DNA of 64,000 bases, taken from an uncultured bacterium. Lineage in GTDB: Bacteria > Omnitrophota > Omnitrophia > Omnitrophales > Abzuiibacteriaceae. This document shows, piece by piece, positions 107 through 22,124 of the stretch. The stretch is taken from assembly GCA_964387845.1 (NCBI GenBank), contig CAYLXA010000006.1, forward strand, positions 64,001-128,000, given 5' to 3'. How positions within the stretch are numbered: the first letter of the stretch is position 1; the number at the start of each line of letters is the position of its first letter. The notes below the pieces were generated by a model, which was given only the letters and a program-made list of their open reading frames with translations, had not been told where the DNA came from and made no database searches. The position numbers and the translations under genes were made by a program.

Positions 107-1552
107 ATGAATTTCAAACACAAAAGCCAAGCTACCATTGCCGTTATTAGCATTGTTTCGCTGCTTATTCCTCATATCGCTTACGCAGTCGGTTCCTCCG
201 GATTCGAAAACGCTTCTTACAGCGCCCGCTCGCTGGGACAGTCTAATGCGGTAGTGGCGCGTCCGCAGGATCCGGATACGGTTGTTTTTAATCCTGCAGG
301 CATTCCCGACTTACCAGGTGTTCAGATTGGCGGCAATTTGGAAGCAATTCATGTTGTAACCTGGCATAAAAGCTCTGTTTCTCATAACACCGCAACAAGC
401 ACAAGTCCTTTGGCCCTTGTCCCCACAGGTTACGCAACTTATAACTTAGGCGAGCGTTTTGATAACCGTGTCGGCGTCGGCTTGGGCTTTAATTTTCCAT
501 TTGGCGTCAGCAACCGTTATCCGTCGCATTCTGAAATGGCGCGTTATGCTGGATATAAAAACAGTATCAAGTTAGGTGCGCTTACGATGGCAAGCGGCGT
601 CAAATTACATGAGAAATTCAGTATTGGCGGCGGCGCTGTATATTATAAAGTGTTTCAATATGATCAATCGTTTAACTACCCCAATGGGGCAGTGATGACT
701 CCTGCGACACCCGGCGCATTCCATGATGGGAAAGTCCAAACTTATCAACAAGGTGACGCATGGGGGTGGAATGCCGGTGCGCTTCTAAAACCAACGGAAC
801 AGCACCAGATCGGCGTGTCTTATCGAAGTCAAGTGACTATACCTACCAACGGGCGGGCTGTTGTCACTGGATTAGAAGGAATCCCCGGAGTTGGTTCGGC
901 GTGTACTTTACAAGGGTTTGACACCTGTCCTTACTGGGAAAGCGGAATTCATTCAGATATCCCGCTTCCGCAAAATATTACAGTCGGGTATGCTTATATT
1001 CCCTCAGAAAAATGGTCTGCCGAAATTGATTTGGGTTGGACGGGTTGGAGCGTTTTTGCTGATCAAGATGTTTCTGTGGATCGTCCTAATGCAGTTACGC
1101 AATCGCTTGGCAGAGTTCCAAGAAATTACCACAATACTTGGAGCGTCAACGCGGGCGGTCATTATAAAATGAACGAGAAAATAGATCTCCTTGGCGGCAT
1201 GTGGCTTTATTCGGCGGCTTCGCCAACTGAAAACTTTGATGCAGTTATTCCAGATTCCAATCGGCTTGGGTTATCGAGCGGGTTTACTTATTCACTGACA
1301 AAAAGCTTGGACATTACGACCATAGGGTTTGTGTCATTCTTTGAAAGGCGAAGCATATCTAACCGAGAATATTTTGCAAAGAATCGCGTCAGTCTTGATG
1401 GTGAGTACACCAGCATTTCTTATGGTTTAATGAGCGGTTTGACTTACCGGTTCGGTGAGGGCGCGGTAAAAGCTACGAATGAGCCGAAAGTGGCGAGTAC
1501 GCCGAAATTGGCGAGTTCTGCTATTGTGAGCCAGGCGGGGAACCTGGCTTAA
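107..1552 (+). CDS. Outer-membrane beta-barrel transporter, FadL/TodX (OMPP1) family (hydrophobic compound / long-chain fatty acid uptake)
   Basis: There is an N-terminal signal peptide (MNFKHKSQATIAVISIVSLLIPHIAYA). The N-terminal region carries an NPAG hatch-like motif (VVFNPAGIPDLPG) typical of FadL-family proteins. The body shows the alternating amphipathic beta-strand pattern of a barrel, and the last barrel strand ends in aromatic TYRF followed by a roughly 33-aa tail. A purine-rich RBS (AAAGGGGAGAG) precedes the ATG at 107. Confidence 0.55.
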   Translation: MNFKHKSQATIAVISIVSLLIPHIAYAVGSSGFENASYSARSLGQSNAVVARPQDPDTVVFNPAGIPDLPGVQIGGNLEAIHVVTWHKSSVSHNTATSTSPLALVPTGYATYNLGERFDNRVGVGLGFNFPFGVSNRYPSHSEMARYAGYKNSIKLGALTMASGVKLHEKFSIGGGAVYYKVFQYDQSFNYPNGAVMTPATPGAFHDGKVQTYQQGDAWGWNAGALLKPTEQHQIGVSYRSQVTIPTNGRAVVTGLEGIPGVGSACTLQGFDTCPYWESGIHSDIPLPQNITVGYAYIPSEKWSAEIDLGWTGWSVFADQDVSVDRPNAVTQSLGRVPRNYHNTWSVNAGGHYKMNEKIDLLGGMWLYSAASPTENFDAVIPDSNRLGLSSGFTYSLTKSLDITTIGFVSFFERRSISNREYFAKNRVSLDGEYTSISYGLMSGLTYRFGEGAVKATNEPKVASTPKLASSAIVSQAGNLA

Positions 1553-1555
1553 AAG

Positions 1556-2359
1556 TCAATCCGTTAAACCCAGATCCAAACAGCGTTTCGAGACAAGCTC
1601 GCAGAATTCTTCAAGATCAAAAGGCTTTGAACCAAAAATCGTTCCCGGCGGGAACGATTTTTTGTCTTCCGGGCTAAGCGGTGTTGCGGACACCACGAAA
1701 ACTTGTTTTGGATTCCAGCCGTCAAGGCCTGCCAGCTTTTGATAGAGTTCATCGGCGCGCATGTGAGGCATTTTCCAGTCCAGCACCACAAAATCGGGCT
1801 CAAAAAATCCGGCCTTTTCGATTCCCTCAAGACCTGTTAAAGCATACTGAGCTTCAAATTTTGCTTTCGAGTAGGATGCCAAAAAATTAGAGACGACTTC
1901 GCAATACTCTGCTTCGTGATCGATGATTAGGATTTTGGCTTTTGGCTTCGTGACGGTTTCGGAAAACTCCGGCTCATAGGCGATGGTTTCCGTGATTTCG
2001 TCAATCACGCGGATTAATTCATCAGTGTCAGGCGGTTTTGAAAGCATGCGGTCAGCCCGAATGTTCCGCAGCTTCGGCTCAAATTGAGGAAGCTTGCCGG
2101 ACAAAATGATGACTTTCAAATTTGGCTGCTGCTCGCGAAGGAGTGAAAGCACCTGAATCCCGTCCAATCTGGGCATCTGAAGATCCAAAATAACCAAATC
2201 CACAACCAAATGCCGCGCCAAGCGAACGGCTTTCTCAGGGTTCGTTTCCGCAATTACGTCGAAGCAGCTTTCTTTCAGAAAGCTTGAAATGGCTTCGTTG
2301 ATGCCGGGATCATCGTCAATGAGGAGAATGAGTTTGCGCTTATGGTCCATGCTTTCCAT
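1556..2359 (-). CDS. Response regulator with two tandem CheY-like receiver domains and no output domain
   Basis: Two receiver (REC) signatures are present. Each has an acidic pocket (LIDDDPG and LIIDHEAEY), a phospho-acceptor context (LVILDLQMP and VVLDWKMP) and a downstream conserved Lys (SKP and GSKP). The gene is convergent with the outer-membrane protein gene. Confidence 0.7.
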   Translation of the reverse strand: MESMDHKRKLILLIDDDPGINEAISSFLKESCFDVIAETNPEKAVRLARHLVVDLVILDLQMPRLDGIQVLSLLREQQPNLKVIILSGKLPQFEPKLRNIRADRMLSKPPDTDELIRVIDEITETIAYEPEFSETVTKPKAKILIIDHEAEYCEVVSNFLASYSKAKFEAQYALTGLEGIEKAGFFEPDFVVLDWKMPHMRADELYQKLAGLDGWNPKQVFVVSATPLSPEDKKSFPPGTIFGSKPFDLEEFCELVSKRCLDLGLTD

Positions 2360-2575
2360 AAAGTTTACCTAAGTCCTTATCCTATAATATCTTAAAGAAT
2401 ATACAAGTATTATTTTCAAGAATTCTGACTTTCAAGATACAATATAGCATCCAAGACGCTCCAAATGGCTCCTTTACTAAGTTTTAGGATAAGTCGATAA
2501 TTATATGCCATGTGTTTATCACTATTAACCATGCCTCACGATAAGCGAGGGTTGTCGCAAACTGTTATCTAACTT

Positions 2576-4150
2576 ATGAGCCCCACAAAAGATAAATCAA
2601 TTCAAATTAAGCTTGAGCGTCCCATCCACGCATCCAAACGCCAGGCCTTTGCCAAATTGCTCCGGATGACCGATTTTCAGAATTTCATGCCGAACGTCAA
2701 AGAAAGTAAGCTCTTAGAACATTCCGGCAACACAGCGCTCATGAAGTGGCATATTGAAATCGAGGGCTTTCCCATCAAGTGGGCGGAGCGCAATACGATC
2801 AACCGGCACAAATTTACGATTCAATTCAAAGCCATTGACGGAGATTTGGCGCTTTTTGAAGGCAAGTGGTCTATCACGGATCACAGCATCGGTTCTCAGA
2901 TCAGTCTCACCGCAAAAATTCAAACCGGAATTCCGTTTCTGGAAAAATTGGTGGGCGGTATTTTGAGGGAAAAAATCATGCGAAATTTTGAAGCGATGCT
3001 GGCATTCTTGGAGTGTGAAATCCGGGAAGATTTTTACCGCGTCAATTTGCCGAAGAAAAATTTAAGCGGCTACGGCCTGATTGGGCATCCCTACAATTAT
3101 CAACACATGCTTCGCTATTTACAGTCGCTTAATCCGGGCATGAAGCTTCCGTCGCGTGAGTTTTTGGGCAAGCTCTTTGACATGACGCCGCCGCACAAGT
3201 CGTGCGATATCCGCCCGATCGAATCAGTGACGGGCCGGAAATCTTACGGTCATTTTATTGTATGCCCGATTATTCCGGAAATGCTCGATGTAAACATTGA
3301 AGCGGTTTTTAGTCGTGTTATTGAAGCAATCCGGGTTGCGGAGAACCATCGCTGCGGCATTGTAACGCTCGGCGGATTTACGTCTATTGCGGGCGAGCGT
3401 TTTGGGAAAGAAATTCCTAAGCTGGTTTCAGTACCGGTCACGACCGGCAACACATTTACGGCTGCCCTTGCGGTGGAGGGTGTCCTGAAGGGCTGCGAGA
3501 CGATGGGGATCGATCTTTCGGTCGCCAAATTAGTTGTCATCGGCGGCAGCGGTGATATCGGAAGTGCCTGCGCGCGCGTGTTAGCCGAAAAGGTCAGGCA
3601 TGTGACGCTTCTTGCACGCAATATCGAACGTCTTCGGGTTGAGCAGGGTTACATTGAACGGCTTGGGAAAGCGACGGTCGATATCGGTTCCGATGTCAAT
3701 ATGTCGATTGCGGATGCGGATATTGTAATTGCAGCAGCCAGCGCAACGCAGTCGTTTATGGATCCGAGCAATTTTAAGTCCGGTTCTGTTATTTGCGACA
3801 TCGGTTACCCAAAGAACATTGCTTATTTAGCAAAAGACCGGCGCGACCTTCTCATTTTTTCCGGCGGGCTTTGCTCGATTCCGTCTGATTTTCATTTAGA
3901 AGCGAAGTTTGACTACGGCTTGCCGACACGGCGCGTTTTGTACGGTTGCTTCGCGGAAGCGATCTTGCTTGATTTGGATAAAAAGTATGAAAGCTTTAGT
4001 TATGGAAAGGGAAATATTACAAAAGAAAAAATGACCGAAATCATGCAGATTGCACGCAGACATGGTTTGGGCCTTGCGCCGTTTTTTTGGGGCGACCGGC
4101 TGCTGGGCGAGCAAGAATTTGAAATGATTCGCGAAAGAGTCAAAAAATAA
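2576..4150 (+). CDS. Fusion protein: N-terminal SRPBCC (polyketide cyclase/dehydrase-like lipid-binding) domain plus C-terminal long-chain acyl-ACP reductase (AAR)-like NAD(P)-binding reductase domain
   Basis: The C-terminal ~350 aa align motif by motif with cyanobacterial aldehyde-forming acyl-ACP reductase as I recall it. Shared motifs are GLIGH, xPEML, LGGFTSI, TTGNT, a (V/A)(I/V)GG(S/T)GDIGSA Rossmann loop, ARNxERL, D(I/G)GYPKN and CFAEA(I/M)LL(D/E). The N-terminal ~160 aa have an SRPBCC/START-like pattern (W-x-I-E...GD-x-A-x-F-x-G-x-W). The ATG at 2576 has no obvious Shine-Dalgarno sequence. Confidence 0.6.
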   Translation: MSPTKDKSIQIKLERPIHASKRQAFAKLLRMTDFQNFMPNVKESKLLEHSGNTALMKWHIEIEGFPIKWAERNTINRHKFTIQFKAIDGDLALFEGKWSITDHSIGSQISLTAKIQTGIPFLEKLVGGILREKIMRNFEAMLAFLECEIREDFYRVNLPKKNLSGYGLIGHPYNYQHMLRYLQSLNPGMKLPSREFLGKLFDMTPPHKSCDIRPIESVTGRKSYGHFIVCPIIPEMLDVNIEAVFSRVIEAIRVAENHRCGIVTLGGFTSIAGERFGKEIPKLVSVPVTTGNTFTAALAVEGVLKGCETMGIDLSVAKLVVIGGSGDIGSACARVLAEKVRHVTLLARNIERLRVEQGYIERLGKATVDIGSDVNMSIADADIVIAAASATQSFMDPSNFKSGSVICDIGYPKNIAYLAKDRRDLLIFSGGLCSIPSDFHLEAKFDYGLPTRRVLYGCFAEAILLDLDKKYESFSYGKGNITKEKMTEIMQIARRHGLGLAPFFWGDRLLGEQEFEMIRERVKK

Positions 4151-4151
4151 C

Positions 4152-6371
4152 ATGACCCCGCCGCTCCTGAGTCCGAGCGTTTACACTTTTAGCTGGTATG
4201 CTGTACCGACCTTAATAGTTGCCGCTGTTATTCTCGCGATCGGTAGTTTTGTCCTGAAGCAAAGTTTTAAATCCCAAACGAATCAATCATTTTTCTTGCT
4301 CTGTGCTGCACTTTTTGTGTGGCTGACCGGTTACAGCTGCATCTATATGCTGGACCAAGAAGACATTGCGCTAACAGCTTACCGCTACTACACATTTCTG
4401 GGTGTCGCTTTTATTGGATTTAGTGTTTATTTATTTTCAGTTCTTTGGCTCCAATTATGGGAGAAACAAAAATATTTTGTCATTTTTTCTTTCATGCTTT
4501 CAGCGTTCTTCTATATCGCTGCCTGGACAACCGACTGGGTTGTGCCGAGCATTGATCAATATTTTTGGGGTTTCTACTCACATTACGGGCCGCTCGGCAT
4601 CGTTTTTTTTGCAACGTTTGTGGCTTTTTTCTTTATCGCCTTTTTTAATTTTATTTACCGGCTCCGCAATCCGATTCCGAGTGTTCAAAAAAGCCAGATC
4701 AAGGCAGTTCTGCTCTCATTTTGCGTTGCCCTAACCGGCGCCTTTGATTTTGTTCCCAAAATGGTCCATGTCTCGCTATACCCGTTTGGATATCTTTCTG
4801 CGCTGCTGTGGATTTTGATCATGGCGTATGCCATTGTGAAGTACAAAGTGATGGATATCCAAACGGTTATTCATAAAACACTGCTGTGGCTTGCAACGTC
4901 TGTGATTTTCTTGGCGCCAATCGCACTCGTGTCTTATGCGGCCTGGGGCTGGCTGAGCCAGCTGTCGGCTGCATGGTTTGCATTAATCACATTTTGCTTT
5001 GTTGTGGCTTTCGTTCCGTACGTCCGTTTTGTGCAGCCTTACATTGATCAATGGTTCGAGCGCCGAAGCTGGAATTTAAACCAAGTGATCAAGCAGTTTA
5101 ATGATGAGCTCATTCATCTAAAAACCATAGAGGACCTTTCCAATCACATTCTACAAACCATTAAAAGAACCATTTACCCCGCAGATTTGGATCTTTTGCT
5201 TTGGGATGAGGGCGGCAAGGAATCCTTAGTATTTACGGGCGATGCGAAGGCGGTCAAGTATGATGCGAGGAAGTTTCACGATTTTTTCCGCTTCTTAGAA
5301 TCATACGATGCCGTCATTCTAGAGGATTATATTGAAATTGATCCGCGCCTTGAAGCTGCCAGGGGGCCGGCGCGCCATTATTTTTCCGCAACCCAAGGAA
5401 TTGTTTGTGTGCCGGTCGTTCTCAATGAAAAGCTGATAGGCGTCATCAATTTACGGCAAAAGGCGAATCTTAAAAATTACTCGCGGGAAGAAATAAGGTT
5501 TCTGTCTGATTTGCGCGGCAGCGCTACGATTGCTATTTCAAATTCACTGCGCCTGATCGCGATGCAGGCAAATCTCAGGCGGTGGAACGAGGAGCTTGAA
5601 AAGCAGGTTGAGGAACGCACCCGAGAGTTGAAAGATGCGCAGGGAAAATTGATTCAAGCGGAAAAATTAGCCACCATCGGAACTTTGGCGGGCGGTGTGG
5701 CGCATGAAATCAACAACCCATTGGCTGCTATTTTGACAAATGCGCAAATGTTACTGTCTGAAAAAATGGACCCTGCGTCTATGGAAAGCCTTCAGTTAAT
5801 TGAAGAAGCGGCGGAAAGATGCCGAATTATAGTGCAAAAGCTCATGAAATACTCCCGAAAATCGCCTCAGGGAGAGTCGTTTGAATCGGTTGATCTCAAT
5901 GAAGCTACCGAACAGACAATCGCTTTGCTGCAGTATCAATTAGAGCAAGACAACGTAAAACTGGTCAAAAAGTTAAATGCAAGAGGAGCCGTGCAGGGAA
6001 ATGCAAACGAATTGTCGCAGGTGCTGACCAATTTAATATTGAATGCGCGTGATGCGCTTCGAAACCGTCCGGATGCCGTTATTGAGGTGCGTACTTTTGA
6101 GAAAGACGGCAAAACCATTGTGGAAGTAGAAGATAACGGAGAGGGGATTCCCAAAGAAATCCTCTCGAAAATTTTTGACCCGTTTTTCACGACGAAAGAT
6201 GTGGGAAAAGGAACAGGTCTCGGGCTTTCAATTGTGCAAGGTATCGTAGAAAAACACAATGCCCAAATCGAAGTGAAGTCGAAAGTTGGATCGGGCACCG
6301 TGATGACCGTTATTTTTTCAAAACAAAACGCAAAATCAAAAAATGCTCAAACCGAACATAGCAACCGCTGA
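4152..6371 (+). CDS. Membrane-bound sensor histidine kinase (N-terminal multi-TM sensor region, GAF-like domain, HisKA, HATPase_c)
   Basis: The N-terminal ~300 aa are very hydrophobic, with 7-8 predicted helices. A GAF-like region follows (VCVPVVLNEKLIGVINLRQ). The H-box reads AHEINNPLAAI and the ATP-lid carries G1/G2 boxes (DNGEGIP...GTGLGLSIV). Confidence 0.8.
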   Translation: MTPPLLSPSVYTFSWYAVPTLIVAAVILAIGSFVLKQSFKSQTNQSFFLLCAALFVWLTGYSCIYMLDQEDIALTAYRYYTFLGVAFIGFSVYLFSVLWLQLWEKQKYFVIFSFMLSAFFYIAAWTTDWVVPSIDQYFWGFYSHYGPLGIVFFATFVAFFFIAFFNFIYRLRNPIPSVQKSQIKAVLLSFCVALTGAFDFVPKMVHVSLYPFGYLSALLWILIMAYAIVKYKVMDIQTVIHKTLLWLATSVIFLAPIALVSYAAWGWLSQLSAAWFALITFCFVVAFVPYVRFVQPYIDQWFERRSWNLNQVIKQFNDELIHLKTIEDLSNHILQTIKRTIYPADLDLLLWDEGGKESLVFTGDAKAVKYDARKFHDFFRFLESYDAVILEDYIEIDPRLEAARGPARHYFSATQGIVCVPVVLNEKLIGVINLRQKANLKNYSREEIRFLSDLRGSATIAISNSLRLIAMQANLRRWNEELEKQVEERTRELKDAQGKLIQAEKLATIGTLAGGVAHEINNPLAAILTNAQMLLSEKMDPASMESLQLIEEAAERCRIIVQKLMKYSRKSPQGESFESVDLNEATEQTIALLQYQLEQDNVKLVKKLNARGAVQGNANELSQVLTNLILNARDALRNRPDAVIEVRTFEKDGKTIVEVEDNGEGIPKEILSKIFDPFFTTKDVGKGTGLGLSIVQGIVEKHNAQIEVKSKVGSGTVMTVIFSKQNAKSKNAQTEHSNR

Positions 6372-6378
6372 TTAAGCC

Positions 6379-8688
6379 ATGATCCATCAAGAAGCTTTGG
6401 GAATTGCGAATGCGTTCATCTGCCTGATGGCAGCCGGGCTTGTGTTTGCCAAAGACCGTTACGGCCGCCTGAACCAGGCGTTTCTGATTTTTTCTTCCAG
6501 CTTAGCGCTTTGGCTGGTGCTGCAGCTTTTTTGGACTTACCACTTAGCAGAAGGTAGTGCGCCGCTCAATTTAGCATGGACGCAAGTCGTTTACATTTTT
6601 TCGCTTGTGATTGCAGCGTCCTTCATTGAGTTTTTGCTGTATTTAATCGATGACGAAGAGTCTTTCGCTTTACCCCGGACTTTAAACGTTTTGATCGGAA
6701 CCGTACCGGCTCTTATTTCGCTGGTTCCGGGTGTTTATGCAACCGTATCCCAACATCCGCTGTTTCAAGTTTTTTATCACCATTGGCCATCCCTATACCC
6801 ATCGACCAACTGGTTTATTGCCAATTTTATGTTTGCACAAGTTTGGATGTTGTTGGCCATTCTGAGGAAGCGCTATGCCATGACAAAGCGCAGGATCGGA
6901 TTTGTGCTGATGGCAACTTTTCTGGGATTTATCGGTATGGTAGTGAATCCGGTTGCGCCTGTTTCACAGTTATTGTTGTGCGTTTTTGTGATTACCATGA
7001 CCTACGCGATTATCAATTATAAGTTGATGGTCATTGAATCGATGGTGCGCAAGCTGACCGTTTTTCTGTTTATGTTTTTGTATGTGTTTATTGTTTTTGG
7101 AAGTGTCTCTTTGGTGCTTCAATCCGGCCTCACGATGGACAATTACGAGCGCTGGTTATGGGCGACCGTATCAAGTGTTTTTTTAATTGTTTTGACGTTT
7201 GATGCGGTCAAGCATTGGATGGCTTATATTACCGACCGCTTTTTGTTTCAAACCAGTTTTGATTATCAAAAACTTCTGCGCGATGCGTCAAAGGGCATGT
7301 CGCGTATCAAGAGCTTTAACCATCTTTGCTCACTCGTGGTTCACTTCATCACAATGCGGATGCTGGTCCGGAATGCCGGCATGCTGACGCGCCATCACGG
7401 GACAGACCGTTTTTATTTAAGCCACCGGCGCGGCTATGAGGCGCCGCCGCTTTTGGAAGCAATTGACGCAAACGACCCGTTTATCCGTTTCCTCGAAAAT
7501 GAGCGCGAGCCGATTGACATTGATCATGTGAATGAATGGCTGCAGGACCGCAACAAAAAGCGCGAGAAAGGCATCCGGCCGAAGCGCGATTATGATTATA
7601 AAGTCATTAAAAACCGGATGGCGATTTTGCGCGCCTCCGCATGTATCCCAAGCTTTTTGGGTGACGAACTGAGAAACGTTTTGATTCTCGGGGAGAAAAA
7701 ATCCGGAGATTATTTCACAGTCAGTGACCTGGACGTGCTTTTTACGCTTGCGCAGGAAGCGGCCATCGCAATTGAAAACGCGCGCCTCTATGATGAAGCG
7801 GTTACAAAATCCGCAGAGTTAACCGGTATCAACAAGCAGTTAGAAATTGCACAATCGAAATTGATTCGCGCACTCAACGAAACCGAAATGACAAACAAGC
7901 GGCTTCAGGATACGCAAGCACAGCTGATTCACGAGCAAAAAATGGCAACGCTCGGGCGCCTGGCATCGTCGGTCGGCCATGAAGTGAACAATCCGCTGAC
8001 GATTTTGTCGATGAATGTAAGCCGCGCGATTTTGAAATACCGCAAAGATCCCAATTTACGCGTTTCGGAAATTTTGGATGTGTTCCAGAAAATGGAGCAG
8101 AACGTCGGGCGCATCAAAGCGGTTGTGAATACGCTCACGGGCCTTCTCAAGAAATCCGAAAAAGGAAAATTTGAACCGCTTTCGCTTAAGTTGATTTTAG
8201 AAGAAACGCTGCCGCTTGTGCAATTCCAGACCTATTTAGATAATTTGACCGGGACGGATGTCGAATTCGATATTCCGGGCAATATCCCGCTGGTTCGAGG
8301 GGATTTGGAGCGCCTTCAGGAGGTTTTCCTTAATTTATTTATCAATGCTTATCACGCCATGGCAGGAAAACGTGACCGACGGATCAAAGTAACGGCCAAG
8401 CAGCATGAATCGAATCCGAACATGGTTCTAATCGAATTTTCCGATAATGGCTGCGGGATGTCGGAAGATGTGATGAATAAAATATTCAATTATGGTTTTA
8501 CCACCAAACCGGTCGGCAAAGGTTCCGGGATGGGGCTTTACATGTGCCGCTATATTATTGAATTGCATGGCGGCGAAATTAAGGTTGTCAGTAAGTCCGG
8601 CGAAGGCACGACATTTGTCATACTTCTGCCGGTCTATGAGGAAGAGTCCGGCATTGTAGGCGAAGAATCGAAGCGAGAGAAGCGCTGA
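6379..8688 (+). CDS. Membrane-bound sensor histidine kinase, paralogue of the preceding gene
   Basis: The architecture matches 4152-6371: an N-terminal polytopic membrane domain, a GAF-like segment, an H-box GHEVNNPLTIL and ATPase boxes (DNGCGMSEDV...GSGMGLYMC). The start lies 8 nt after the upstream kinase stop. Confidence 0.8.
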   Translation: MIHQEALGIANAFICLMAAGLVFAKDRYGRLNQAFLIFSSSLALWLVLQLFWTYHLAEGSAPLNLAWTQVVYIFSLVIAASFIEFLLYLIDDEESFALPRTLNVLIGTVPALISLVPGVYATVSQHPLFQVFYHHWPSLYPSTNWFIANFMFAQVWMLLAILRKRYAMTKRRIGFVLMATFLGFIGMVVNPVAPVSQLLLCVFVITMTYAIINYKLMVIESMVRKLTVFLFMFLYVFIVFGSVSLVLQSGLTMDNYERWLWATVSSVFLIVLTFDAVKHWMAYITDRFLFQTSFDYQKLLRDASKGMSRIKSFNHLCSLVVHFITMRMLVRNAGMLTRHHGTDRFYLSHRRGYEAPPLLEAIDANDPFIRFLENEREPIDIDHVNEWLQDRNKKREKGIRPKRDYDYKVIKNRMAILRASACIPSFLGDELRNVLILGEKKSGDYFTVSDLDVLFTLAQEAAIAIENARLYDEAVTKSAELTGINKQLEIAQSKLIRALNETEMTNKRLQDTQAQLIHEQKMATLGRLASSVGHEVNNPLTILSMNVSRAILKYRKDPNLRVSEILDVFQKMEQNVGRIKAVVNTLTGLLKKSEKGKFEPLSLKLILEETLPLVQFQTYLDNLTGTDVEFDIPGNIPLVRGDLERLQEVFLNLFINAYHAMAGKRDRRIKVTAKQHESNPNMVLIEFSDNGCGMSEDVMNKIFNYGFTTKPVGKGSGMGLYMCRYIIELHGGEIKVVSKSGEGTTFVILLPVYEEESGIVGEESKREKR

Positions 8689-8693
8689 GCGGC

Positions 8694-9080
8694 ATGGATA
8701 AGAGCGATACTCGAAAAATATTGGTTGTGGATGACGAAACTGAAATCGTCGACCAGGTGAAGGAATATTTTGAAAGCGAAGGCTTCGCCGTAATGACTGC
8801 CGAAACCGGCGATGCAGGCATCAAACTGATTACCAAAGAGTTTCCTGATATTCTGATTCTTGATATGAAATTACCCGACATGTCCGGCCTGTTGGTATTG
8901 AAGTACGCCAAAGCCCAGAGTCCAAAGACAAAAGTGATTGTCATGACCGGTTATATCGACCAAGTCATGTTTGACCAAGCGGAGGAGCTTGGCCGCGACG
9001 CATTTTTACAAAAGCCATTTGACCTTGAGCGATTGAAGTTTGAGGTCGATAAATTAGGGACAGTTGAAGAGGAAGAATAA
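8694..9080 (+). CDS. Single-domain CheY-like response regulator
   Basis: REC motifs are present: ILVVDDETEIVD, ILILDMKLPDMSG, VIVMTGY and a Lys in LQKPF. There is no output domain. The ATG follows the kinase stop by 6 nt. Confidence 0.8.
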   Translation: MDKSDTRKILVVDDETEIVDQVKEYFESEGFAVMTAETGDAGIKLITKEFPDILILDMKLPDMSGLLVLKYAKAQSPKTKVIVMTGYIDQVMFDQAEELGRDAFLQKPFDLERLKFEVDKLGTVEEEE

Positions 9081-9082
9081 AG

Positions 9083-9811
9083 ATGCCAAAACGCAAAATT
9101 CTAGTCGGGGATGACAGGGACCTATCGATCGGGTTCTTATCCGATTTCTTTTCGGAAACCAAATCTATTCCTATTTTTGCCAAATCGAAAGAGGATGTCG
9201 AAGAAGGGCTGAGCTTGATGAACCCGGACCTGGTTTTTATGCGCATCGATTGGATGGACGAAGCGCTCGGTTCTAAACTTGCCAAATACCGGAAAGACAA
9301 ACCGCAGACTAAATTTTTCAGCTTGGGATATTCGAAGAACGAATATTTTAAATGGGAAAATCAATTTGAAGTACCCTTAGAGCTTAAAGCATTCCGCAAG
9401 ACCTTGCTGGGCGAGCTTCAATTTCCGCCGCTGATTAAACTTCTCGTGATTGACGATGAAAAAGGAATCGGCGAGCTTTTCAAAGATTTCTTCGAACTTC
9501 GGAAAGATCCGCCGTTTCAGGTTGATTTTGCGCTTGACGGCCTGGAAGGCTTTAAAAAGATCGAAACTTTTAAGCCCGATTGCCTGATTCTGGATATCAA
9601 AATGCCGATCCGGAGCGGGATTGAAGTCTACAGAGATCTTCGAAAATCCCAGCGCGACATTCCTACCATTATTTTTATCGATGCCACTTCGGCTGACGAA
9701 ATTTCGGAGATGCGGAAAATAGGCAATCCGGTTTTTGTCGAAAAAAGCGGCTCCGAAAGTTCGATGCCCGAAATGCTGGCCCTTATTAAAAAAATGGTCT
9801 ATTTCGCATAA
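9083..9811 (+). CDS. Tandem receiver-domain protein (divergent N-terminal REC-like domain plus canonical C-terminal REC), no output domain
   Basis: The C-terminal domain has LLVIDDEKG, LILDIKMP and a Lys in FVEKSG. The N-terminal half keeps the fold-like pattern (ILVGDDRD...LVFMRIDWMDE) but is divergent. Confidence 0.6.
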   Translation: MPKRKILVGDDRDLSIGFLSDFFSETKSIPIFAKSKEDVEEGLSLMNPDLVFMRIDWMDEALGSKLAKYRKDKPQTKFFSLGYSKNEYFKWENQFEVPLELKAFRKTLLGELQFPPLIKLLVIDDEKGIGELFKDFFELRKDPPFQVDFALDGLEGFKKIETFKPDCLILDIKMPIRSGIEVYRDLRKSQRDIPTIIFIDATSADEISEMRKIGNPVFVEKSGSESSMPEMLALIKKMVYFA

Positions 9812-9885: not shown

Positions 9886-11712
9886 ATGAAGCCAACTAAC
9901 ATTTTGGGCATTTCTGCTTATTACCATGATAGTGCCGCCTGTCTTGTCCAGGACGGTAAGATTGTTGCGGCGGCGCAAGAGGAACGTTTCACACGGAAAA
10001 AACACGACCACGAGTTTCCCGCAAATGCTATTGAATATTGTCTCAAGGAAGGCGGTATCGATGCGAATCAAATTGATATCGTTACTTTTTACGATAAACC
10101 TTTTGTGAAGTTTGAACGGCTGCTTCAAACGTATCTTGCTTACGCACCTCAGGGCATCGCATCATTTATAAAGGCAATACCGCTTTGGATTAAGCAAAAG
10201 CTTTGGATTCGGGAATTAATTCGCGAAAGGCTTAATTTTACAGGCAAGGTATTATTCCCGGAACATCATGAATCTCACGCCGCTTCGGCATTTTATGCCT
10301 CACCTTACGAAGAAGCCGCATTTCTGACCATGGATGGAGTCGGCGAGTGGGCGACGACCAGTTATGGAGTTGGGAAAGGAAATCAAATCAAAATCTGGTC
10401 TGAAATTCATTTCCCGCATTCTATAGGCCTTTTGTATTCGGCATTTACTTATCATTTGGGTTTTAAGGTCAATTCTGGTGAATACAAAGTCATGGGGCTG
10501 GCACCTTACGGTGAGCCAAAATACAAAGATATCATTCTTTCTAAATTGATCGACTTAAAGGAAGATGGTTCTTTTAAAATGGACATGCAGTATTTTAATT
10601 ATTGCGCGGGCTTGACGATGACGAATGCCAAGTTCGATAGATTATTCGACGAGCCCCGCCGAAAGCCCGAATCAAAATTAACACAAAAGCACATGGATTT
10701 AGCGCGTTCTGTCCAGGAAGTGACCGAGGAAGCCATGCTCCGGATCACACGCCATGTTCACCGCGAAACCAAGCAGGAGAATCTTTGTCTGGCCGGCGGT
10801 GTTGCGCTCAACTGTGTCGGAAATGGCCGCGTATTGCGAGAGGGGCCGTTTAAGAATATTTGGATTCAGCCCGCAGCCGGTGATGCGGGTGGAGCGCTGG
10901 GAGCTGCTTTATTAGTTTGGCATCAATATTTGGAGAATCCGCGCATGATTAGCTCCAATCGAGATGTGCAGAACGGTTCTTATCTGGGTCCCGATTTTGA
11001 CCGGAATGAAATCAAGGATTATCTGGAGGAAAATCAAATTCCCAATACTGAATTAACCAATGCGGAATTAACGAACCGTGTTTCGGACTTGATTGCGGAA
11101 GGGAATGTGATCGGCTGGTTTCAAGGCAGGATGGAATTCGGCCCCCGCGCTCTTGGGAACCGCTCTATTTTGGGAGATGCGCGGTCTCCAGAGATGCAGG
11201 AAAAAATGAATTTAAAAATTAAATTTCGCGAAAGTTTTCGTCCTTTTGCACCGGCTGTAACGGAAGAAAGAGTTTCGGACTTTTTTGATATTGACCGTGA
11301 AAGCCCTTACATGCTTTTGGTTGCTCCCGTAAAGTCAGAGATTAGAAAAGAAATGACGGATGAGGAGAAGCGGCTTTTCGGAATTCAGAAATTGAATATT
11401 GCGCGCTCTGCAATCCCTGCGGTAACGCACGTCGATTATTCCGCACGCATCCAGACGGTCAGCCCTGACGTGAATCCGATATTTTACGATCTTCTCAAGC
11501 AGTTTGATAAAAAGCACCGCTGTCCGGTTCTTATTAATACATCATTTAATGTCAGGGGAGAACCCATTGTTTGCACGCCCGCAGATGCTTATCGCTGTTT
11601 TATGAGAACAAACATGGATTATCTGGTCCTCGGTAACTTTCTAATCAACAAGCAGGATCAAAAGCCGCTGGAAAAGGACACCAATTGGCTTCGCGAGTTT
11701 GAGCTGGATTAA
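9886..11712 (+). CDS. Carbamoyltransferase, NodU/CmcH family (O-carbamoylation of a sugar or metabolite)
   Basis: The N-terminus ILGISAYYHDSAACLVQDGKIVAAAQEERFTRKKHD is the Carbam_trans_N signature. The ~600-aa length and C-terminal motifs (GRMEFGPRALGNRSIL, FRPFAP) match the family. Confidence 0.85.
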   Translation: MKPTNILGISAYYHDSAACLVQDGKIVAAAQEERFTRKKHDHEFPANAIEYCLKEGGIDANQIDIVTFYDKPFVKFERLLQTYLAYAPQGIASFIKAIPLWIKQKLWIRELIRERLNFTGKVLFPEHHESHAASAFYASPYEEAAFLTMDGVGEWATTSYGVGKGNQIKIWSEIHFPHSIGLLYSAFTYHLGFKVNSGEYKVMGLAPYGEPKYKDIILSKLIDLKEDGSFKMDMQYFNYCAGLTMTNAKFDRLFDEPRRKPESKLTQKHMDLARSVQEVTEEAMLRITRHVHRETKQENLCLAGGVALNCVGNGRVLREGPFKNIWIQPAAGDAGGALGAALLVWHQYLENPRMISSNRDVQNGSYLGPDFDRNEIKDYLEENQIPNTELTNAELTNRVSDLIAEGNVIGWFQGRMEFGPRALGNRSILGDARSPEMQEKMNLKIKFRESFRPFAPAVTEERVSDFFDIDRESPYMLLVAPVKSEIRKEMTDEEKRLFGIQKLNIARSAIPAVTHVDYSARIQTVSPDVNPIFYDLLKQFDKKHRCPVLINTSFNVRGEPIVCTPADAYRCFMRTNMDYLVLGNFLINKQDQKPLEKDTNWLREFELD

Positions 11713-11713
11713 T

Positions 11714-12139
11714 ATGGAATTCACAATCCTAAAGGAAATCCGCGAAATTAAAAGCACCCGAAAAGAACTGCGTGATTTCGGCATTGTGATGGGCGTTGCT
11801 TTTTTGCTCATTGCCGGGTTTATATATTGGAAGTCTGCCAAGCTTAACTTGGTCATTTTCGCATTATCCGCTATTTTTGCTTTGTTGGGTGTGGCAGCAC
11901 CCGGTGTTCTAAAACCAATCCAAAAGGTATGGATGAGCATTGCCGTTGTAATGGGATGGATGGTTTCGCGCGTTATATTGTTCGTTCTTTTTTATGCTGT
12001 GCTAACGCCGATCAGCGTTTTGGCCAAGTTGTTTGGAGAAAGTTTTTTGGATTTAAAGATGAATGACGGGAAGGCTACTTATTGGGTTGATCGACGAACC
12101 AAGGAATTTCAAAAAAAACAGTACGAAAGGCAGTTTTAA
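11714..12139 (+). CDS. Small polytopic membrane protein, SxtJ-like, by context with the carbamoyltransferase
   Basis: The ATG sits 2 nt after the carbamoyltransferase stop; the ORF track extends to a TTG at 11699. The product is ~141 aa with 3-4 hydrophobic helices. The gene order carbamoyltransferase / ~145-aa membrane protein / ~50-aa protein mirrors sxtI-sxtJ-sxtK-type arrangements. Confidence 0.45.
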   Translation: MEFTILKEIREIKSTRKELRDFGIVMGVAFLLIAGFIYWKSAKLNLVIFALSAIFALLGVAAPGVLKPIQKVWMSIAVVMGWMVSRVILFVLFYAVLTPISVLAKLFGESFLDLKMNDGKATYWVDRRTKEFQKKQYERQF

Positions 12140-12149
12140 AGGAGGCGTC

Positions 12150-12308
12150 ATGAGTAAATTATCTATTTTGTCGGAATTCTGGGATTTTCTGAAAGAAAGA
12201 AAAAAGTGGTGGCTGACGCCTATCGTTATTTTTTTGGTTCTGTTTGGCGCATTGTTATTTTTTGCGCAAGGATCCGCGGTTGCTCCGTTTATCTACACAT
12301 TGTTTTAA
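12150..12308 (+). CDS. DUF5989 / SxtK-like micro-protein (52 aa, single TM) missed by the >=60-aa ORF track
   Basis: A strong RBS (AAAGGAGG) lies 6-7 nt before the ATG at 12150. The product is MSKLSILSEFWDFLKERKKWWLTPIVIFLVLFGALLFFAQGSAVAPFIYTLF. Its EFW-x-FLKERKKWWL ... GSA-x-APFIYTLF pattern matches the conserved small protein I recall encoded next to carbamoyltransferases. Confidence 0.55.
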   Translation: MSKLSILSEFWDFLKERKKWWLTPIVIFLVLFGALLFFAQGSAVAPFIYTLF

Positions 12309-12326
12309 GAGGCGCATGATTTTGCA

Positions 12327-12791
12327 ATGAATTCAGCGATTATAAAACAAAGCCAAATTCGAGATGTAAAATTTGGAAAGAGCGTGACCGTCATTCAACC
12401 CGTCAATTTATACGAGTGCGAAATCGGCGACGATGCTTTTGTGGGCCCATTTGTGGAAATTCAAAAGGGTGTCAAAATCGGAAAAAGAACCCGGGTTCAA
12501 TCGCATGCGTTCATTTGCGAGTTGGTGACAATCGGCGATGATTGCTTTGTTTCGCATGGCGCCATGTTTATTAATGATACTTTTGGGGAGGGCGCTCCCG
12601 AGCGTGACCCGCAAAAATGGAAAAAAACAACGATTGGCAATCACGTTTCGATCGGAACCAACGCAACGATCATGCCGGTAAAAATCGCTGATAGCGTTGT
12701 AATCGGCGCGGGTTCTGTAGTCACTAAGGATATCCTAGAGCCCGGTATCTACGCCGGAAATCCTGCAAAGAAAATCAGGAGCATAAAGTAA
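12327..12791 (+). CDS. Hexapeptide-repeat (left-handed beta-helix) acyl/acetyltransferase
   Basis: There are repeated [LIV]-G-x-x-x-x hexads (IGDDAFVGP, IGKRTRV, IGDDCFVSHGAMF, IGNHVSIGTNATI, IGAGSVV). The ~150-aa size is typical of sugar N/O-acetyltransferases. Confidence 0.7.
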   Translation: MNSAIIKQSQIRDVKFGKSVTVIQPVNLYECEIGDDAFVGPFVEIQKGVKIGKRTRVQSHAFICELVTIGDDCFVSHGAMFINDTFGEGAPERDPQKWKKTTIGNHVSIGTNATIMPVKIADSVVIGAGSVVTKDILEPGIYAGNPAKKIRSIK

Positions 12792-12795
12792 TTTC

Positions 12796-13224
12796 GTGAA
12801 CGACCAAATTCCGGAAGGCCTTAGACCTGCCTGCAAAATTTTAATCATCGATGACGAAGAAGCGGTCGGCGAGTTTCTGTCGGATGCGCTGATTAACTAT
12901 GCTAAAGGGACGCGCTACGAAGTCCGCTACGCTCAGAACGGGGAAGCGGCGCTTAAAATATCAAATGAATTCGAGCCGGATGTGGCGATCGTCGATATCA
13001 AAATGCAGCATATGTGGGGCGATGAGTTGATCCGCCGTTTTCAAGCCGGCGAAGCGCATACGCCGAAGGATTTTGTGATTTTTACGGGCACCAACACCGA
13101 TGAATTCCGCACGAAAGCAGCCAACGCCGGCTACACGTTTCTTACCAAATCGGCCCACATGGAAGACATTTTCGAAGCAGTTAAGAAGATCTGCATCAAG
13201 CACAACCTTCTGGAAAAAATCTAG
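12796..13224 (+). CDS. Stand-alone CheY-like receiver domain protein (GTG start)
   Basis: REC motifs are ILIIDDEEAVGE, VAIVDIKMQ, FTGTN and a Lys in LTKS. There is no output domain. Confidence 0.65.
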   Translation: MNDQIPEGLRPACKILIIDDEEAVGEFLSDALINYAKGTRYEVRYAQNGEAALKISNEFEPDVAIVDIKMQHMWGDELIRRFQAGEAHTPKDFVIFTGTNTDEFRTKAANAGYTFLTKSAHMEDIFEAVKKICIKHNLLEKI

Positions 13225-13253
13225 TTATCCTTTACCGCTCATCCCTTACACCG

Positions 13254-13892
13254 TTAATGAATTGCAGGCCGGGTGACTAAGAAAAGGCGAGCTTCAATTG
13301 AATCGATATTCCGGAATTTGTGCGGAATGCCGCCGTCAAAGTAGGCGGATTCATTGGCGTGCAGAGTCTTGATTTTGTTGCCGAAAGTAACTTCCAAAGT
13401 CCCTGACTCCAGGAAAATGCAGATCATCGAATTATCCCGGAACTTCCACTTCTTCAACTCTTTGAAGGGCTTAATATTCATAATGCCCATAAAAAAGTCA
13501 CGGCCGCTAGTGCCCGGAGGGCTCAGGGACTGAATAGAAAAGCCGTGCTGGCTATATTCAATGAAACCGCGCTGTCCAAATCCGCAGGTGTAGAAGGCGC
13601 CTTCCCATTCGCCCATCGCACGTGTGGCAAGTTCCGAAAATGAGATTTGAAAGGCAGATGCAATCTGTACAAGCTTATCGGATGATGGGTCCTGAATGCG
13701 TTGTGCAATGATATTGAATAAATGCTTTTCATTGATGCCTGCCTTTTCTGCAAGCCATCCCACTGAAGCATCATCGCCGCGTCCTCGGCGTTCTTCCATT
13801 AACACTTTGATTGCCGCGCCCCACAGTGGGATTTTTTTTCGAGGGTAGCTTTTGAACTGTTCGTCTAAGTCGCTTTTGATTTCGTTGTACAT
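13254..13892 (-). CDS. XRE-family HTH plus C-terminal cupin-domain transcriptional regulator
   Basis: The N-terminal helix-turn-helix (WLAEKAGINEKHLFNIIAQRIQDPSSDKLVQIASAFQISFSEL) is followed by a cupin beta-barrel motif (ESAYFDGGIPHKFRNID). It is divergent from the 14168-15341 operon. Confidence 0.75.
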   Translation of the reverse strand: MYNEIKSDLDEQFKSYPRKKIPLWGAAIKVLMEERRGRGDDASVGWLAEKAGINEKHLFNIIAQRIQDPSSDKLVQIASAFQISFSELATRAMGEWEGAFYTCGFGQRGFIEYSQHGFSIQSLSPPGTSGRDFFMGIMNIKPFKELKKWKFRDNSMICIFLESGTLEVTFGNKIKTLHANESAYFDGGIPHKFRNIDSIEARLFLVTRPAIH

Positions 13893-15457: not shown

Positions 15458-15482
15458 CAATTCACAAAACTTGCAGCGATCA

Positions 15483-17426: not shown

Positions 17427-17447
17427 AACGGTTCAGAAAGATTAAGT

Positions 17448-18719
17448 ATGGATGAAAACGAGCTAAATCAAAATCCTTTGCCCGAAGATCCGAAAACACC
17501 GGACGAGCCGCCGGTCAATCCGGAGCACAAAACGCCCGTCAATCCCTATTTGAAATCGATCGCCAAGCTGCAGGGCATTCAGAACTCCCCCTATTTCAAG
17601 AAAATCGTCATCGGCGTTGTGATCTTGGCTGTGGCCGGTTTCGGTGCTCAGAAAGTTTTTGAAATCTTCGATAAAAAGTCAAAAGAGAAAATTTCGCAGG
17701 AAAAGCAAGGCGACCAGGTGATCGGCGTGAAGGCCTTTAAAGTTGGGCGTTACAATTACGAAGACTCGCTGAATGAACTCGGTACGATTAAGGGAGCGGT
17801 CGAATTTAAATTGAGTTTTGAAATACCGGGCGTTGTCAGCGCGATCAATTACCGCGAAGGCGAGCGCTACGAAGAAGGTGCATTGTTAATTTCGCTTAAG
17901 CAAGATGACATCCTGCTGCGCTTGAAGCGCGCGCAAGCGGAGCGGAGCAAAGCAGAAACCGCGCTTGCCATTGCGCAGGAAAAAATGAAAGAGCATGAGA
18001 AATTATTTCAAATCGGTGCGATTCCGCAGACCACCCTGGACAAAGTAAAGCTGGAAGTCGACAGCGCCCGGTTTGATGTGGAAGCCAATGATTTGGAAGT
18101 CAAAGCCAACGAAGTCATGCTTGAAAAATCAAATCTCTACGCGCCGACGGCTGGCACCATTGGCGAACTTCACGTCGAGGAAGGCGAGGCCATCACGCAG
18201 AATACGCTGGTCGGAACGCATCTTTCAACCGACCGCGTACTTGCCGAATTTGGCGTGACCGAAAAAGACCTCAATAAATTGTCGCTCGGCCAGAAGGCAA
18301 AAGTGTTTGTCGACGCTTATCCCGATAAAAATTTTGACGGAACGATTGAGAGTATCGGCAGTGTGGTGGTTGGTCAAAGCCGGACGGCAAACGTGAAAGT
18401 CCGTATTGAAAATCCGGAGAATATCCTGGTGCCCGGCATGTTTGCTCGGATTAAAATTCTCCTGTTTCAAAAGAAAAATACACTGGTTTTACCGACTGAT
18501 TCTCTTCAGGGCAAAGAGAAGGATTATTTTGTCTACATTATTGACCCCGGCCAAAAAACCGTTCACAAACAGCCAATCGTGGTGGGTTATCAAAGGACCG
18601 ACTACGCTCAAATTGATTCCGGTGTTAAGGAAGGCGATTTGGTCGCCGTAACCGGTTTAGACCGCCTGCAGGAAGACTCCAAAGTCCGCATTATCGAGAC
18701 CCAAGAAGCAGAATTATAA
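17448..18719 (+). CDS. Efflux RND periplasmic adaptor subunit (membrane fusion protein, HlyD/AcrA family)
   Basis: There is a single N-terminal TM (IVIGVVILAVAGFGA). A lipoyl-like hairpin (GTIKGAVEF...APTAGTIGELHVEEGEAI) is followed by a coiled-coil hairpin and beta-barrel/MP domains. It sits between the outer-membrane factor and the RND pumps. Confidence 0.8.
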   Translation: MDENELNQNPLPEDPKTPDEPPVNPEHKTPVNPYLKSIAKLQGIQNSPYFKKIVIGVVILAVAGFGAQKVFEIFDKKSKEKISQEKQGDQVIGVKAFKVGRYNYEDSLNELGTIKGAVEFKLSFEIPGVVSAINYREGERYEEGALLISLKQDDILLRLKRAQAERSKAETALAIAQEKMKEHEKLFQIGAIPQTTLDKVKLEVDSARFDVEANDLEVKANEVMLEKSNLYAPTAGTIGELHVEEGEAITQNTLVGTHLSTDRVLAEFGVTEKDLNKLSLGQKAKVFVDAYPDKNFDGTIESIGSVVVGQSRTANVKVRIENPENILVPGMFARIKILLFQKKNTLVLPTDSLQGKEKDYFVYIIDPGQKTVHKQPIVVGYQRTDYAQIDSGVKEGDLVAVTGLDRLQEDSKVRIIETQEAEL

Positions 18720-18803
18720 GCCCGAAATTTGCCTTCCGTTTTCACCCCTCCGAGCCGATAAATTATCTGTAGTGTATACTTATTCAAGTCTTTAAATTTG
18801 TAA

Positions 18804-22037: not shown

Positions 22038-22124
22038 ATTTAAATTTCAAAATTAAAAATTCAAAATATTTGAAATATTAGGATTATTCGCACGGTTTTG
22101 AACTTTTAGTTTTGAATTTGTGAA

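Follow-up and report, generated by a model that had tools for sequence, protein, structure and literature searches.

A predicted SRPBCC–acyl-thioester reductase fusion encoded beside polytopic histidine kinases in the Omnitrophota

Reductases of the AAR type (for acyl-ACP reductase, ACP being acyl carrier protein) are known from alkane synthesis in cyanobacteria and from a small number of pathways to pigments and alkaloids. We describe here a gene on a 64,000-nucleotide stretch of DNA from an uncultured bacterium of the Omnitrophota (contig CAYLXA010000006.1 of GenBank assembly GCA_964387845.1, positions 64,001 to 128,000 of the forward strand; this whole stretch is called the window below, and coordinates are counted from its first letter) that encodes a predicted reductase of this type fused to an SRPBCC domain, and that is followed by genes for sensor histidine kinases. 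Like the AAR of S. elongatus (Synpcc7942_1594; PDB 6JZQ, 6JZU and 6JZY), the protein has a three-part fold, a Cys nucleophile, a GxxGDIG loop and an Arg/Lys phosphate pocket, and both presumably reduce a thioester to an aldehyde by a ping-pong mechanism. Unlike AAR, it begins with the SRPBCC domain, has histidine kinase genes alongside and no aldehyde-deformylating oxygenase (ADO) as partner, and belongs to the non-photosynthetic Omnitrophota.

Related domains occur in two other described groups of proteins. In PigE the homologous domain reduces thioesters, yielding aldehydes (PMC8341465), and for KecF and similar transaminase fusions the same activity of this domain is predicted (PMC6498172, PMC10829540). 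The window's reductase domain is equally similar to that of these reductase-transaminase fusions (PigE, KecF, TamH; 163 bits with the PigE model, reaching to residue 520), and their reduce-then-aminate logic has a counterpart in some Omnitrophota, where the gene that comes next codes for a class-III transaminase that scores best with the PigE model; the window protein differs in that its fusion partner is a lipid-binding domain, that no transaminase is encoded in the window, and that there is no pyrrole or alkaloid cluster. The terminal amidation domain (TAD) of the carmabin nonribosomal peptide synthetase (NRPS; PDB 9E4S and related structures) shares the AAR-like fold and an invariant Cys beside the nicotinamide, with another outcome, a putative amidation (bioRxiv 10.1101/2024.10.28.620694); it is set apart by its specificity for NAD, which is due to an Asp where the window protein has Arg348, by another N-terminal lobe, by its place within an NRPS and by an identity of 20%.

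On the side of signalling, the RpfF–RpfC (DSF), CqsA–CqsS (CAI-1) and ComQXPA systems are alike in that the gene for an enzyme that uses fatty-acyl or other lipid precursors adjoins one for a histidine kinase with multiple transmembrane segments. Hydrophobic signals can depend on FadL to be taken up (PMC9938287) and on pumps to be exported, and the tailoring steps vary between lineages. The present locus differs from these cassettes in that their synthases have no sequence relationship to its enzyme, in that its sensor is built of HisKA_7TM and GAF domains, and in that it is distributed phylum-wide and not in patches. In the Des–DesK–DesR system, where DesK–DesR controls des and serves membrane-lipid homeostasis, the gene for a lipid-modifying enzyme likewise adjoins that for a membrane-reading polytopic kinase, but the enzyme and kinase families are other ones, and the regulators of the window have no DNA-binding output.

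Our analysis points to a link, so far undescribed, between an enzyme predicted to form fatty aldehydes and two-component signalling. The kind of enzyme is already known; what appears to be new is its fusion to SRPBCC, the ancient and tight linkage to kinases, and the existence of variants that carry PilZ, helix-turn-helix (HTH) or GAF domains. A literature search on acyl-ACP reductase with SRPBCC, Omnitrophica or Omnitrophota found no papers, and no description of the fusion, of its linkage to HisKA_7TM–GAF kinases or of the PilZ, HTH and GAF variants was found in the searchable literature; database names for these proteins are generic ('SRPBCC family protein', 'NAD(P)-binding domain-containing protein').

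The fusion gene and the sensor kinases beside it

The fusion gene runs from an ATG to a TAA at 2576..4150 on the plus strand, where the initial annotation had placed it, and encodes a protein of 524 amino acids (aa) that is predicted to be soluble, with 0 transmembrane segments. Only 1 nt separates it from the gene for HK1, a histidine kinase of the domain order HisKA_7TM–GAF–HisKA–HATPase_c (4152..6371, plus strand), which is followed on the same strand, after 7 nt, by HK2, a second polytopic GAF histidine kinase (6379..8688), and then by two response regulators: RR1, a single-domain CheY-like protein (8694..9080, 5 nt after HK2), and RR2 (9083..9811, 2 nt after RR1), in which a REC domain follows an N-terminal region without assigned domain and no DNA-binding domain was detected. 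Divergent from the fusion gene, on the minus strand, lies the gene for a response regulator with two REC domains (1556..2359), an arrangement that recurs in a 76%-identical relative (L008). Neither this kinase context nor the size of the family had been noticed in the initial annotation, which had taken the fusion to be unusual.

The fusion is in fact far from rare. A protein search with it returned at least 779 clusters; in the best 120 of these the named ones are almost all from Candidatus Omnitrophota, and the proteins, a few truncated entries apart, are about 520-550 aa long, contain both domains and show 44-80% identity. A scan of species-representative genomes found a relative in at least 153 genomes. 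The locus analyses reported here cover 80 of these 153; in all 80 the match extends over both domains, and the label is Omnitrophota in nearly every case, a phylum with which the window, including an open reading frame (ORF) of 9371 aa, is itself consistent. A few loci (L009, L041, L042, L066, L067, L069, L078, L080, L083 and L085) have the gene and operon in their Omnitrophota form together with labels of Planctomycetia, Planctomycetales or Uhrbacteria metagenome-assembled genomes (MAGs), which are likely to be mislabelled or mis-binned assemblies rather than instances of gene spread.

When only the reductase domain was used as query, 270 representative clusters were recovered at E<=1e-30, both stand-alone and multidomain. 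Among them are many stand-alone reductases of 350-380 aa, divergent SRPBCC-reductase fusions at 29-34% identity, and further architectures, namely PilZ-SRPBCC-reductase, HTH-PilZ-SRPBCC-reductase and, in Myxococcales, reductase-GAF. One such reductase-GAF gene (L089, GCA_016191815.1) is found amid genes for GAF-nucleotide-cyclase proteins and Ser/Thr kinases, a setting that hints at regulation of an AAR-like enzyme by cyclic nucleotides in another phylum.

For a census of kinases, the ORFs of the 80 species loci were searched with the window's own proteins; 71 of these loci have at least 1.5 kb of downstream sequence. An HK1-type kinase is encoded downstream on the same strand in 66 of the 71, directly adjacent in 45, with gaps of -169 to +305 nt that include many small overlaps of about 3-13 nt, and within 5 kb in the other 21, with one to three genes in between. 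The sole locus with ample sequence and no kinase is L054. The first kinase is similar to HK1 in the 7TM region in 59 of the 66 loci, and further kinases and single-domain regulators usually come next. Downstream of the divergent fusions (34% and 29% identity) and of a PilZ-bearing variant there is again a HisKA_7TM-GAF kinase (L090, L092 and L094), with a gene-kinase overlap of 4 nt in each of L090 and L092; the L094 kinase, whose cognate regulator is a REC-nucleotide cyclase, aligns with HK1 from end to end (E 2e-51).

Given that the pairing is kept down to 29-34% identity and that the L094 kinase can be aligned with HK1 over its whole length, the enzyme and the kinase form a conserved unit, in which the enzyme has repeatedly been joined to signalling domains. 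Since the pairing is conserved across the Omnitrophota and beyond, it is very likely, judging from gene order and domain fusions, that the two work together. The arrangement has the make-up of a signal-synthase/receptor-kinase cassette, that is, an enzyme predicted to form a small molecule and a polytopic kinase in conserved linkage. In the searchable literature HisKA_7TM itself turned up in domain censuses only, and no assigned ligand was found there.

The reductase and SRPBCC domains

With 116 homologues as input, AlphaFold2 gave a confident model of the fusion protein (pLDDT 91.3, pTM 0.88), with two domains. The C-terminal one, an AAR-like (COG5322) acyl-thioester reductase domain (aa 166-524; 3071..4147, plus strand), had been recognized as such in the initial annotation by eight quoted motifs, seven of which are exact, the eighth, 'LPEML', being IPEML in the protein; GLIGH, LGGFTSI, TTGNT, ARNxERL and CFAEA are identical, letter for letter, in S. 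elongatus AAR. The assignment is upheld by the NCBIfam models, of which TIGR04058 (AcACP_reductase) covers aa 166-498 with 169.9 bits (E 9e-50) and that of PigE covers aa 210-520 with 162.6 bits, whereas the glutamyl-tRNA reductase model reaches just 30.9 bits and the only Pfam match to this half of the protein is the generic Rossmann family Shikimate_DH, at 31.5 bits; the domain thus groups with AAR and PigE and not with shikimate dehydrogenase or glutamyl-tRNA reductase. Among solved structures, a sequence search ranked S. elongatus AAR (6jzq, E 8e-37) first, followed by PigE and then, for the N-terminus, by TTHA0849. The reductase domain is 32.8% identical to S. elongatus AAR over 326 columns, and a Foldseek search with the AlphaFold2 model gave AAR (6jzy_A) as the best match (TM-score 0.83 when normalised to AAR, E 2e-25, 31% identity), the three parts of the AAR fold, an N-terminal lobe, a Rossmann domain in the middle and a C-terminal domain, all being present; next best was the AAR-like TAD domain, with a TM-score of about 0.7 and 20% identity.

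The features that define AAR, including the phosphate pocket for NADPH with R189 and R314, were taken from the published work (PMC7089970) and mapped onto a 28-sequence alignment of the family; a second alignment comprises 116 sequences. The equivalent of the acyl-enzyme nucleophile C294 is Cys458 (3947..3949), which is invariant in 116 of 116 aligned members. The dinucleotide-binding loop GGSGDIG (aa 323-329, 3542..3562) corresponds to 162-GATGDIG-168 of AAR; its Gly, Asp and Ile residues are present in 28 of 28 sequences, and its glycines and Ile are invariant in the larger alignment. In the NADPH phosphate pocket, Arg348 (3617..3619) stands for R189 and is found in 28 of 28 sequences, and K478 (4007-4009) stands for R314, with K or R in 27 of 28. 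A388-S389, equivalent to A223-S224 in the 222-VASM-225 loop, is likewise kept in 28 of 28; in the 116-sequence alignment A388 is invariant, and conservation is 90% or more for D327, R348 and S389. The NADPH-site set of AAR is otherwise kept as well, the equivalent of R193 alone varying in the 28-sequence alignment. By these comparisons the domain is a member of the AAR-like (COG5322) superfamily of thioester reductases (AAR, the N-terminal part of PigE, the C-terminal part of KecF) with a complete NADPH-type active site, and R348 and K478 predict NADPH rather than NADH as the cofactor.

The residues with which AAR docks ADO have fared differently. In the 28-sequence alignment R73 is replaced by N240 in the window protein and by D, S, N or G across the family, and R79 by S246 in the window protein, with S, E, Q, N or R in the family; K80 alone is retained, as K or R. 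At its C-terminus the protein has a conserved tail of about 25 residues that AAR lacks, and in the reductase-domain search hundreds of stand-alone non-cyanobacterial relatives outscored AAR itself. Because the equivalog cut-off of TIGR04058 is missed by a wide gap (170 as against 450 bits; the exact cut-off is 449.7) and the ADO interface is lost, the fusion reductase is not an orthologue of cyanobacterial AAR. Nor is it a bifunctional enzyme of the PigE type (NF053554), there being no aminotransferase domain in the fusion protein or the window, or a TAD, since it has Arg348 in place of Asp at the AAR-type NADPH position and is encoded by a free-standing gene and not at the end of an NRPS module.

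The N-terminal domain (aa 9-160; 2600..3055, plus strand) had been predicted to be of the SRPBCC type, and this is borne out: Pfam Polyketide_cyc (PF03364) matches aa 17-141 with 53 bits (E 5e-14; cut-off 23.4), and by DSSP the AlphaFold2 model shows a helix-grip fold of seven strands and a helix at 120-160. Foldseek matched this domain to TTHA0849 (TM-score 0.88, rmsd 1.7) and also to the polyketide aromatase/cyclases ZhuI and TcmN and to Bet v 1. Fold and Pfam family are thus those of SRPBCC/START proteins (TTHA0849, the Coq10/RatA-type members of PF03364, TcmN/ZhuI), which are typically binders of hydrophobic ligands or polyketide-handling enzymes; unlike these, the domain is fused to a reductase, the connector being its own extended C-terminal helix of 41 residues (aa 120-160, nt 2933-3055), and it has an invariant residue set of its own (W69, F84, G89, D90 and W98, with W58 nearly so). 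A catalytic role for the fused domain may also be considered. The two domains also occur apart: a Desulfobacterales operon has one gene for a stand-alone reductase (42% identical) and another for an SRPBCC protein of the same subfamily, which shares 32% identity with the N-terminal domain encoded in the window (E 8e-25), and the comparison argues that SRPBCC and reductase are a functional pair, fused or separate.

Neighbouring genes, proposed coupling and its alternatives

The genes that sit between enzyme and kinase in related loci, or abut the enzyme, are clade-specific and offer clues to the chemistry. A class-III transaminase with PigE as its best model (467 bits) comes directly after the gene in L028, L030, L042 and L082, with a formyltransferase or a GNAT-like protein encoded next. 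Elsewhere the neighbours are extended SDR/NAD_binding_4 reductases, some of them fused to a domain with an HxxxDG motif, or a protein with AMP-binding, PP-binding and acyltransferase domains; in 25 of 74 loci a PlsC-type acyltransferase gene overlaps the start codon of the enzyme gene. The Myxococcales reductase-GAF gene is preceded by genes for an acyl carrier protein (ACP) and a FabA-like dehydratase, and the Desulfobacterales operon, which has no kinase, adds to the reductase and SRPBCC genes a GMC oxidoreductase, an acyl-AMP ligase, a carrier protein and an RND pump. These neighbours support, by homology, a carrier-bound acyl thioester as the probable substrate and an aldehyde as the probable product, which would then be reduced, aminated or acylated. 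A ketosynthase encoded downstream in 10 loci was considered as a pathway gene and set aside, since it passes the FabF equivalog cut-off and was treated as a housekeeping fabF.

Two of these neighbours stand out in their own right. In nine loci a domain of about 530 aa with the motif FSHIP(V/A)DG is joined to the extended SDR or comes after it (for example L012 11654-14392, L041 12498-14096 and L064 11582-14167); it has no match among Pfam, NCBIfam or PDB sequences and may be a new acyltransferase-like family, perhaps resembling wax synthases. A short GMC-type flavoprotein of about 430 aa with a Cys-rich CxxCxxCxxxC insert adjoins the reductase in L057 (11578-12870), L095 (6722-7999) and L093 (3281-4579); it recurs in the Omnitrophota, in a PilZ-variant locus and in the Desulfobacterales, is 40% identical between phyla, and thus makes a third partner that is conserved.

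Transport genes form a looser association. The FadL/TodX-family outer-membrane channel of the window (107..1552, plus strand; Toluene_X, 166.7 bits with a cut-off of 29.7, E 8e-49, profile positions 5-421 of 421) does lie two genes upstream on the same strand, as the initial annotation had it, but is not the main partner for which it was taken: the gene at 1556..2359 intervenes on the opposite strand, placing FadL outside the fusion-gene operon, and only 8 of the 80 species loci have a FadL gene adjacent to the fusion gene, six directly upstream on the same strand, one (L008) as in the window and one (L030) downstream. An RND pump is encoded within 10 kb in 20 of the 80 loci, usually upstream; that of the window is about 11 kb downstream, beside a TM199 homologue, and the association may be inherited synteny or functional. 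FadL proteins admit long-chain acyl-homoserine-lactone signals (PMC9938287). Both FadL and RND pumps are facultative and fit a hydrophobic product that crosses the envelope; neither defines the module.

The explanation that we favour, though as a whole it falls just short of an even chance, is that of a carrier-fused reductase which informs a kinase. The C-terminal domain would move an acyl chain from acyl-ACP or acyl-CoA to Cys458 and reduce it with NADPH to a fatty aldehyde, a step that we consider probable from the conserved active site. The SRPBCC domain, on the N-terminal side of the reductase, would accept or carry the water-insoluble product as a built-in part of the enzyme; since in AAR both the tunnel exit and the dock for ADO are on the N-terminal lobe, it probably takes the place of ADO as product acceptor, although the architecture and the confident two-domain model leave the chances of a carrier role evenly balanced. 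The fusion gene would be the first cistron of an operon with the 7TM-GAF histidine kinases and CheY-like regulators, and the carrier-bound aldehyde, or a clade-specific alcohol, amine, amide or ester derived from it, would be read by the kinase through its membrane or GAF domain. That the product of the enzyme is the ligand of the kinase, as a self-made lipid signal or a sensor of lipid status, is possible, and we put it forward tentatively; in loci that have FadL or RND pumps, these would carry the hydrophobic compound through the envelope. The stricter version, in which the enzyme presents its lipid product on its own carrier domain, the kinase is a dedicated receptor for this product and the whole is a previously unrecognised lipid signalling unit with FadL and RND pumps as its route through the envelope, is somewhat doubtful. 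We favour the direction from enzyme to kinase because the enzyme is encoded by the first cistron, because its gene is coupled to that of the kinase and not of a regulator, because the tailoring genes vary in a manner that recalls the diversification of signals, and because an HTH-fused variant exists.

The best of the alternatives turns this direction round and makes the enzyme a regulated output, in that the kinases would sense the state of the envelope or membrane, or contact with a host, and would switch the reductase through CheY-like regulators or second messengers, in a DesK-DesR-like manner. The fusion elsewhere of the enzyme to GAF and to PilZ, a receptor domain for cyclic di-GMP, is the usual signature of allostery; the REC-nucleotide cyclase of L094 agrees with a second messenger, the regulators of the window, lacking DNA-binding domains, would probably act by protein contact, and conservation throughout the phylum fits a housekeeping circuit. 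The enzyme gene, however, is always upstream of the kinase and is often translationally coupled to the kinase and not to the regulator, and the HTH-PilZ-SRPBCC-reductase protein resembles an input module set on an output domain. We judge a regulated output to be unlikely, if still worth reckoning with.

A pathway for bulk lipids of the envelope (fatty alcohols, wax esters, ether lipids or aminolipids), in which FadL moves substrates and the kinases are mere neighbours or generic regulators, comes nearer to what the initial annotation had proposed. Its suggestion of a fatty-aldehyde lipid route with a built-in carrier remains plausible, because SDRs, the PigE-like transaminase, PlsC acyltransferases, acyl-AMP ligase and ACP, and FadL adjoin the genes of relatives; the kinase and CheY-like context moves the likely role away from the bulk synthesis of membrane or wax lipids and in the direction of signalling. 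The window has none of the accessory lipid genes, which are specific to particular clades, and its FadL gene is moreover set apart by one on the opposite strand, whereas the kinase is the only constant partner, in 66 of 71 loci and down to 29% identity; the repeated PilZ, HTH and GAF fusions would also be left unexplained. Even with the PlsC overlap at the gene start, the SDR/NAD_binding_4 proteins with an HxxxDG-type domain, the GNAT and formyltransferase genes, the nearby FadL and RND genes and the kinase-free Desulfobacterales operon in its favour, we find a bulk lipid role distinctly improbable.

Less probable again is that the AAR-like module is mainly a sensor, which would report acyl-ACP and NADPH, as lipid or redox status, to the kinase, or that it is non-reductive, with the Cys-thioester resolved in some other way. 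The full NADPH pocket is kept, including the phosphate-binding Arg and Lys, unlike in the NAD-specific TAD, enzymes that use aldehydes (transaminase, SDR) are encoded next to it in relatives, and AAR (31%, TM-score 0.83) is closer to it than TAD (20%, about 0.7). For such a role one can cite the TAD fold, which with its invariant Cys serves chemistry beyond aldehyde release, the HTH-fused variant, which suggests an input domain, and purified PigE, whose NAD(P)H turnover in vitro was not measurable (PMC8341465).

A true AAR that supplies alkane synthesis by way of an ADO gene at another place in the genome can be rejected despite the shared motifs and the best structural match, given the score far under the equivalog cut-off, the stand-alone relatives that outscore AAR, the replacement of R73 and R79 across the family, and the fact that no ADO was found in the 64 kb or in the inspected neighbourhoods of relatives. 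For the window, the initial annotation's statement that it has no ADO-like gene is correct among the substantive ORFs of at least 150 aa, a few ORFs inside or antisense to larger genes being unscanned.

Several points weigh against the reading of a reductase that informs a kinase. Its support is homology and gene order throughout; the protein stays below the AAR equivalog cut-off, and domains of the AAR fold can do other chemistry, as in the putatively amidating TAD. None of the tailoring and acyl-supply genes of the relatives occurs in the window. The PilZ and GAF fusions fit a regulated output at least as well as a source of signal, and conservation throughout a phylum is unusual for a signal of the quorum type. 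The taxonomic labels are those of MAGs, and the inspected set covers 80 of the 153 genome matches.

If it is true that the reductase informs the kinase, the Omnitrophota and some other uncultured lineages have a self-produced lipid signal or a sense of lipid status. Many Omnitrophota are ultra-small and host-dependent. The predicted AAR-type chemistry is here fused to a lipid carrier and tied to two-component sensors across a largely uncultured phylum, and were the coupling functional, it would give a ligand class for the HisKA_7TM sensor domain and a first handle on lipid sensing or communication in the Omnitrophota. The release of insoluble products limits AAR in biocatalysis; given functional coupling, a naturally carrier-fused, aldehyde-forming enzyme would be at hand for possible use in the biocatalysis of fatty aldehydes, alcohols or amines.

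Other features of the window

The presumed promoter region of the fusion gene is the 216-nt interval at 2360..2575 between the divergent genes, with the minus-strand 2xREC regulator on one side and the fusion gene on the other. No RNA family was matched when the window as a whole and the 5' region of the fusion gene were scanned with Rfam, which leaves no clue to a riboswitch; counts of promoter and terminator patterns were not above those in shuffled sequence and were not used as evidence.

Directly after the regulators comes a gene for a NodU/CmcH-type carbamoyltransferase (9886-11712), and within 9886-13892 there are also genes for a hexapeptide-repeat transferase (12327-12791) and, on the opposite strand, a cupin protein. 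These three are not conserved in relatives; their products might modify the product of the module.

Further downstream, 15471-25199 on the plus strand encodes an RND efflux set of OEP, MFP, AcrB and AcrB, with two tandem AcrB-type pumps. Directly after this four-gene set, an uninterrupted ORF at 25491-53606 (plus strand) encodes the 9371-aa protein, which when scanned in three pieces had no Pfam-A match. It is followed at 53651-54241 (plus strand) by a gene for a 196-aa membrane protein, also without a Pfam match. In 21 further loci of the Omnitrophota, homologues of the latter (E 5e-37) are encoded upstream of the SRPBCC-reductase gene, with a gene for a secreted CBM11-like protein next to them; in the window the gene has been relocated to the far side of the giant ORF.

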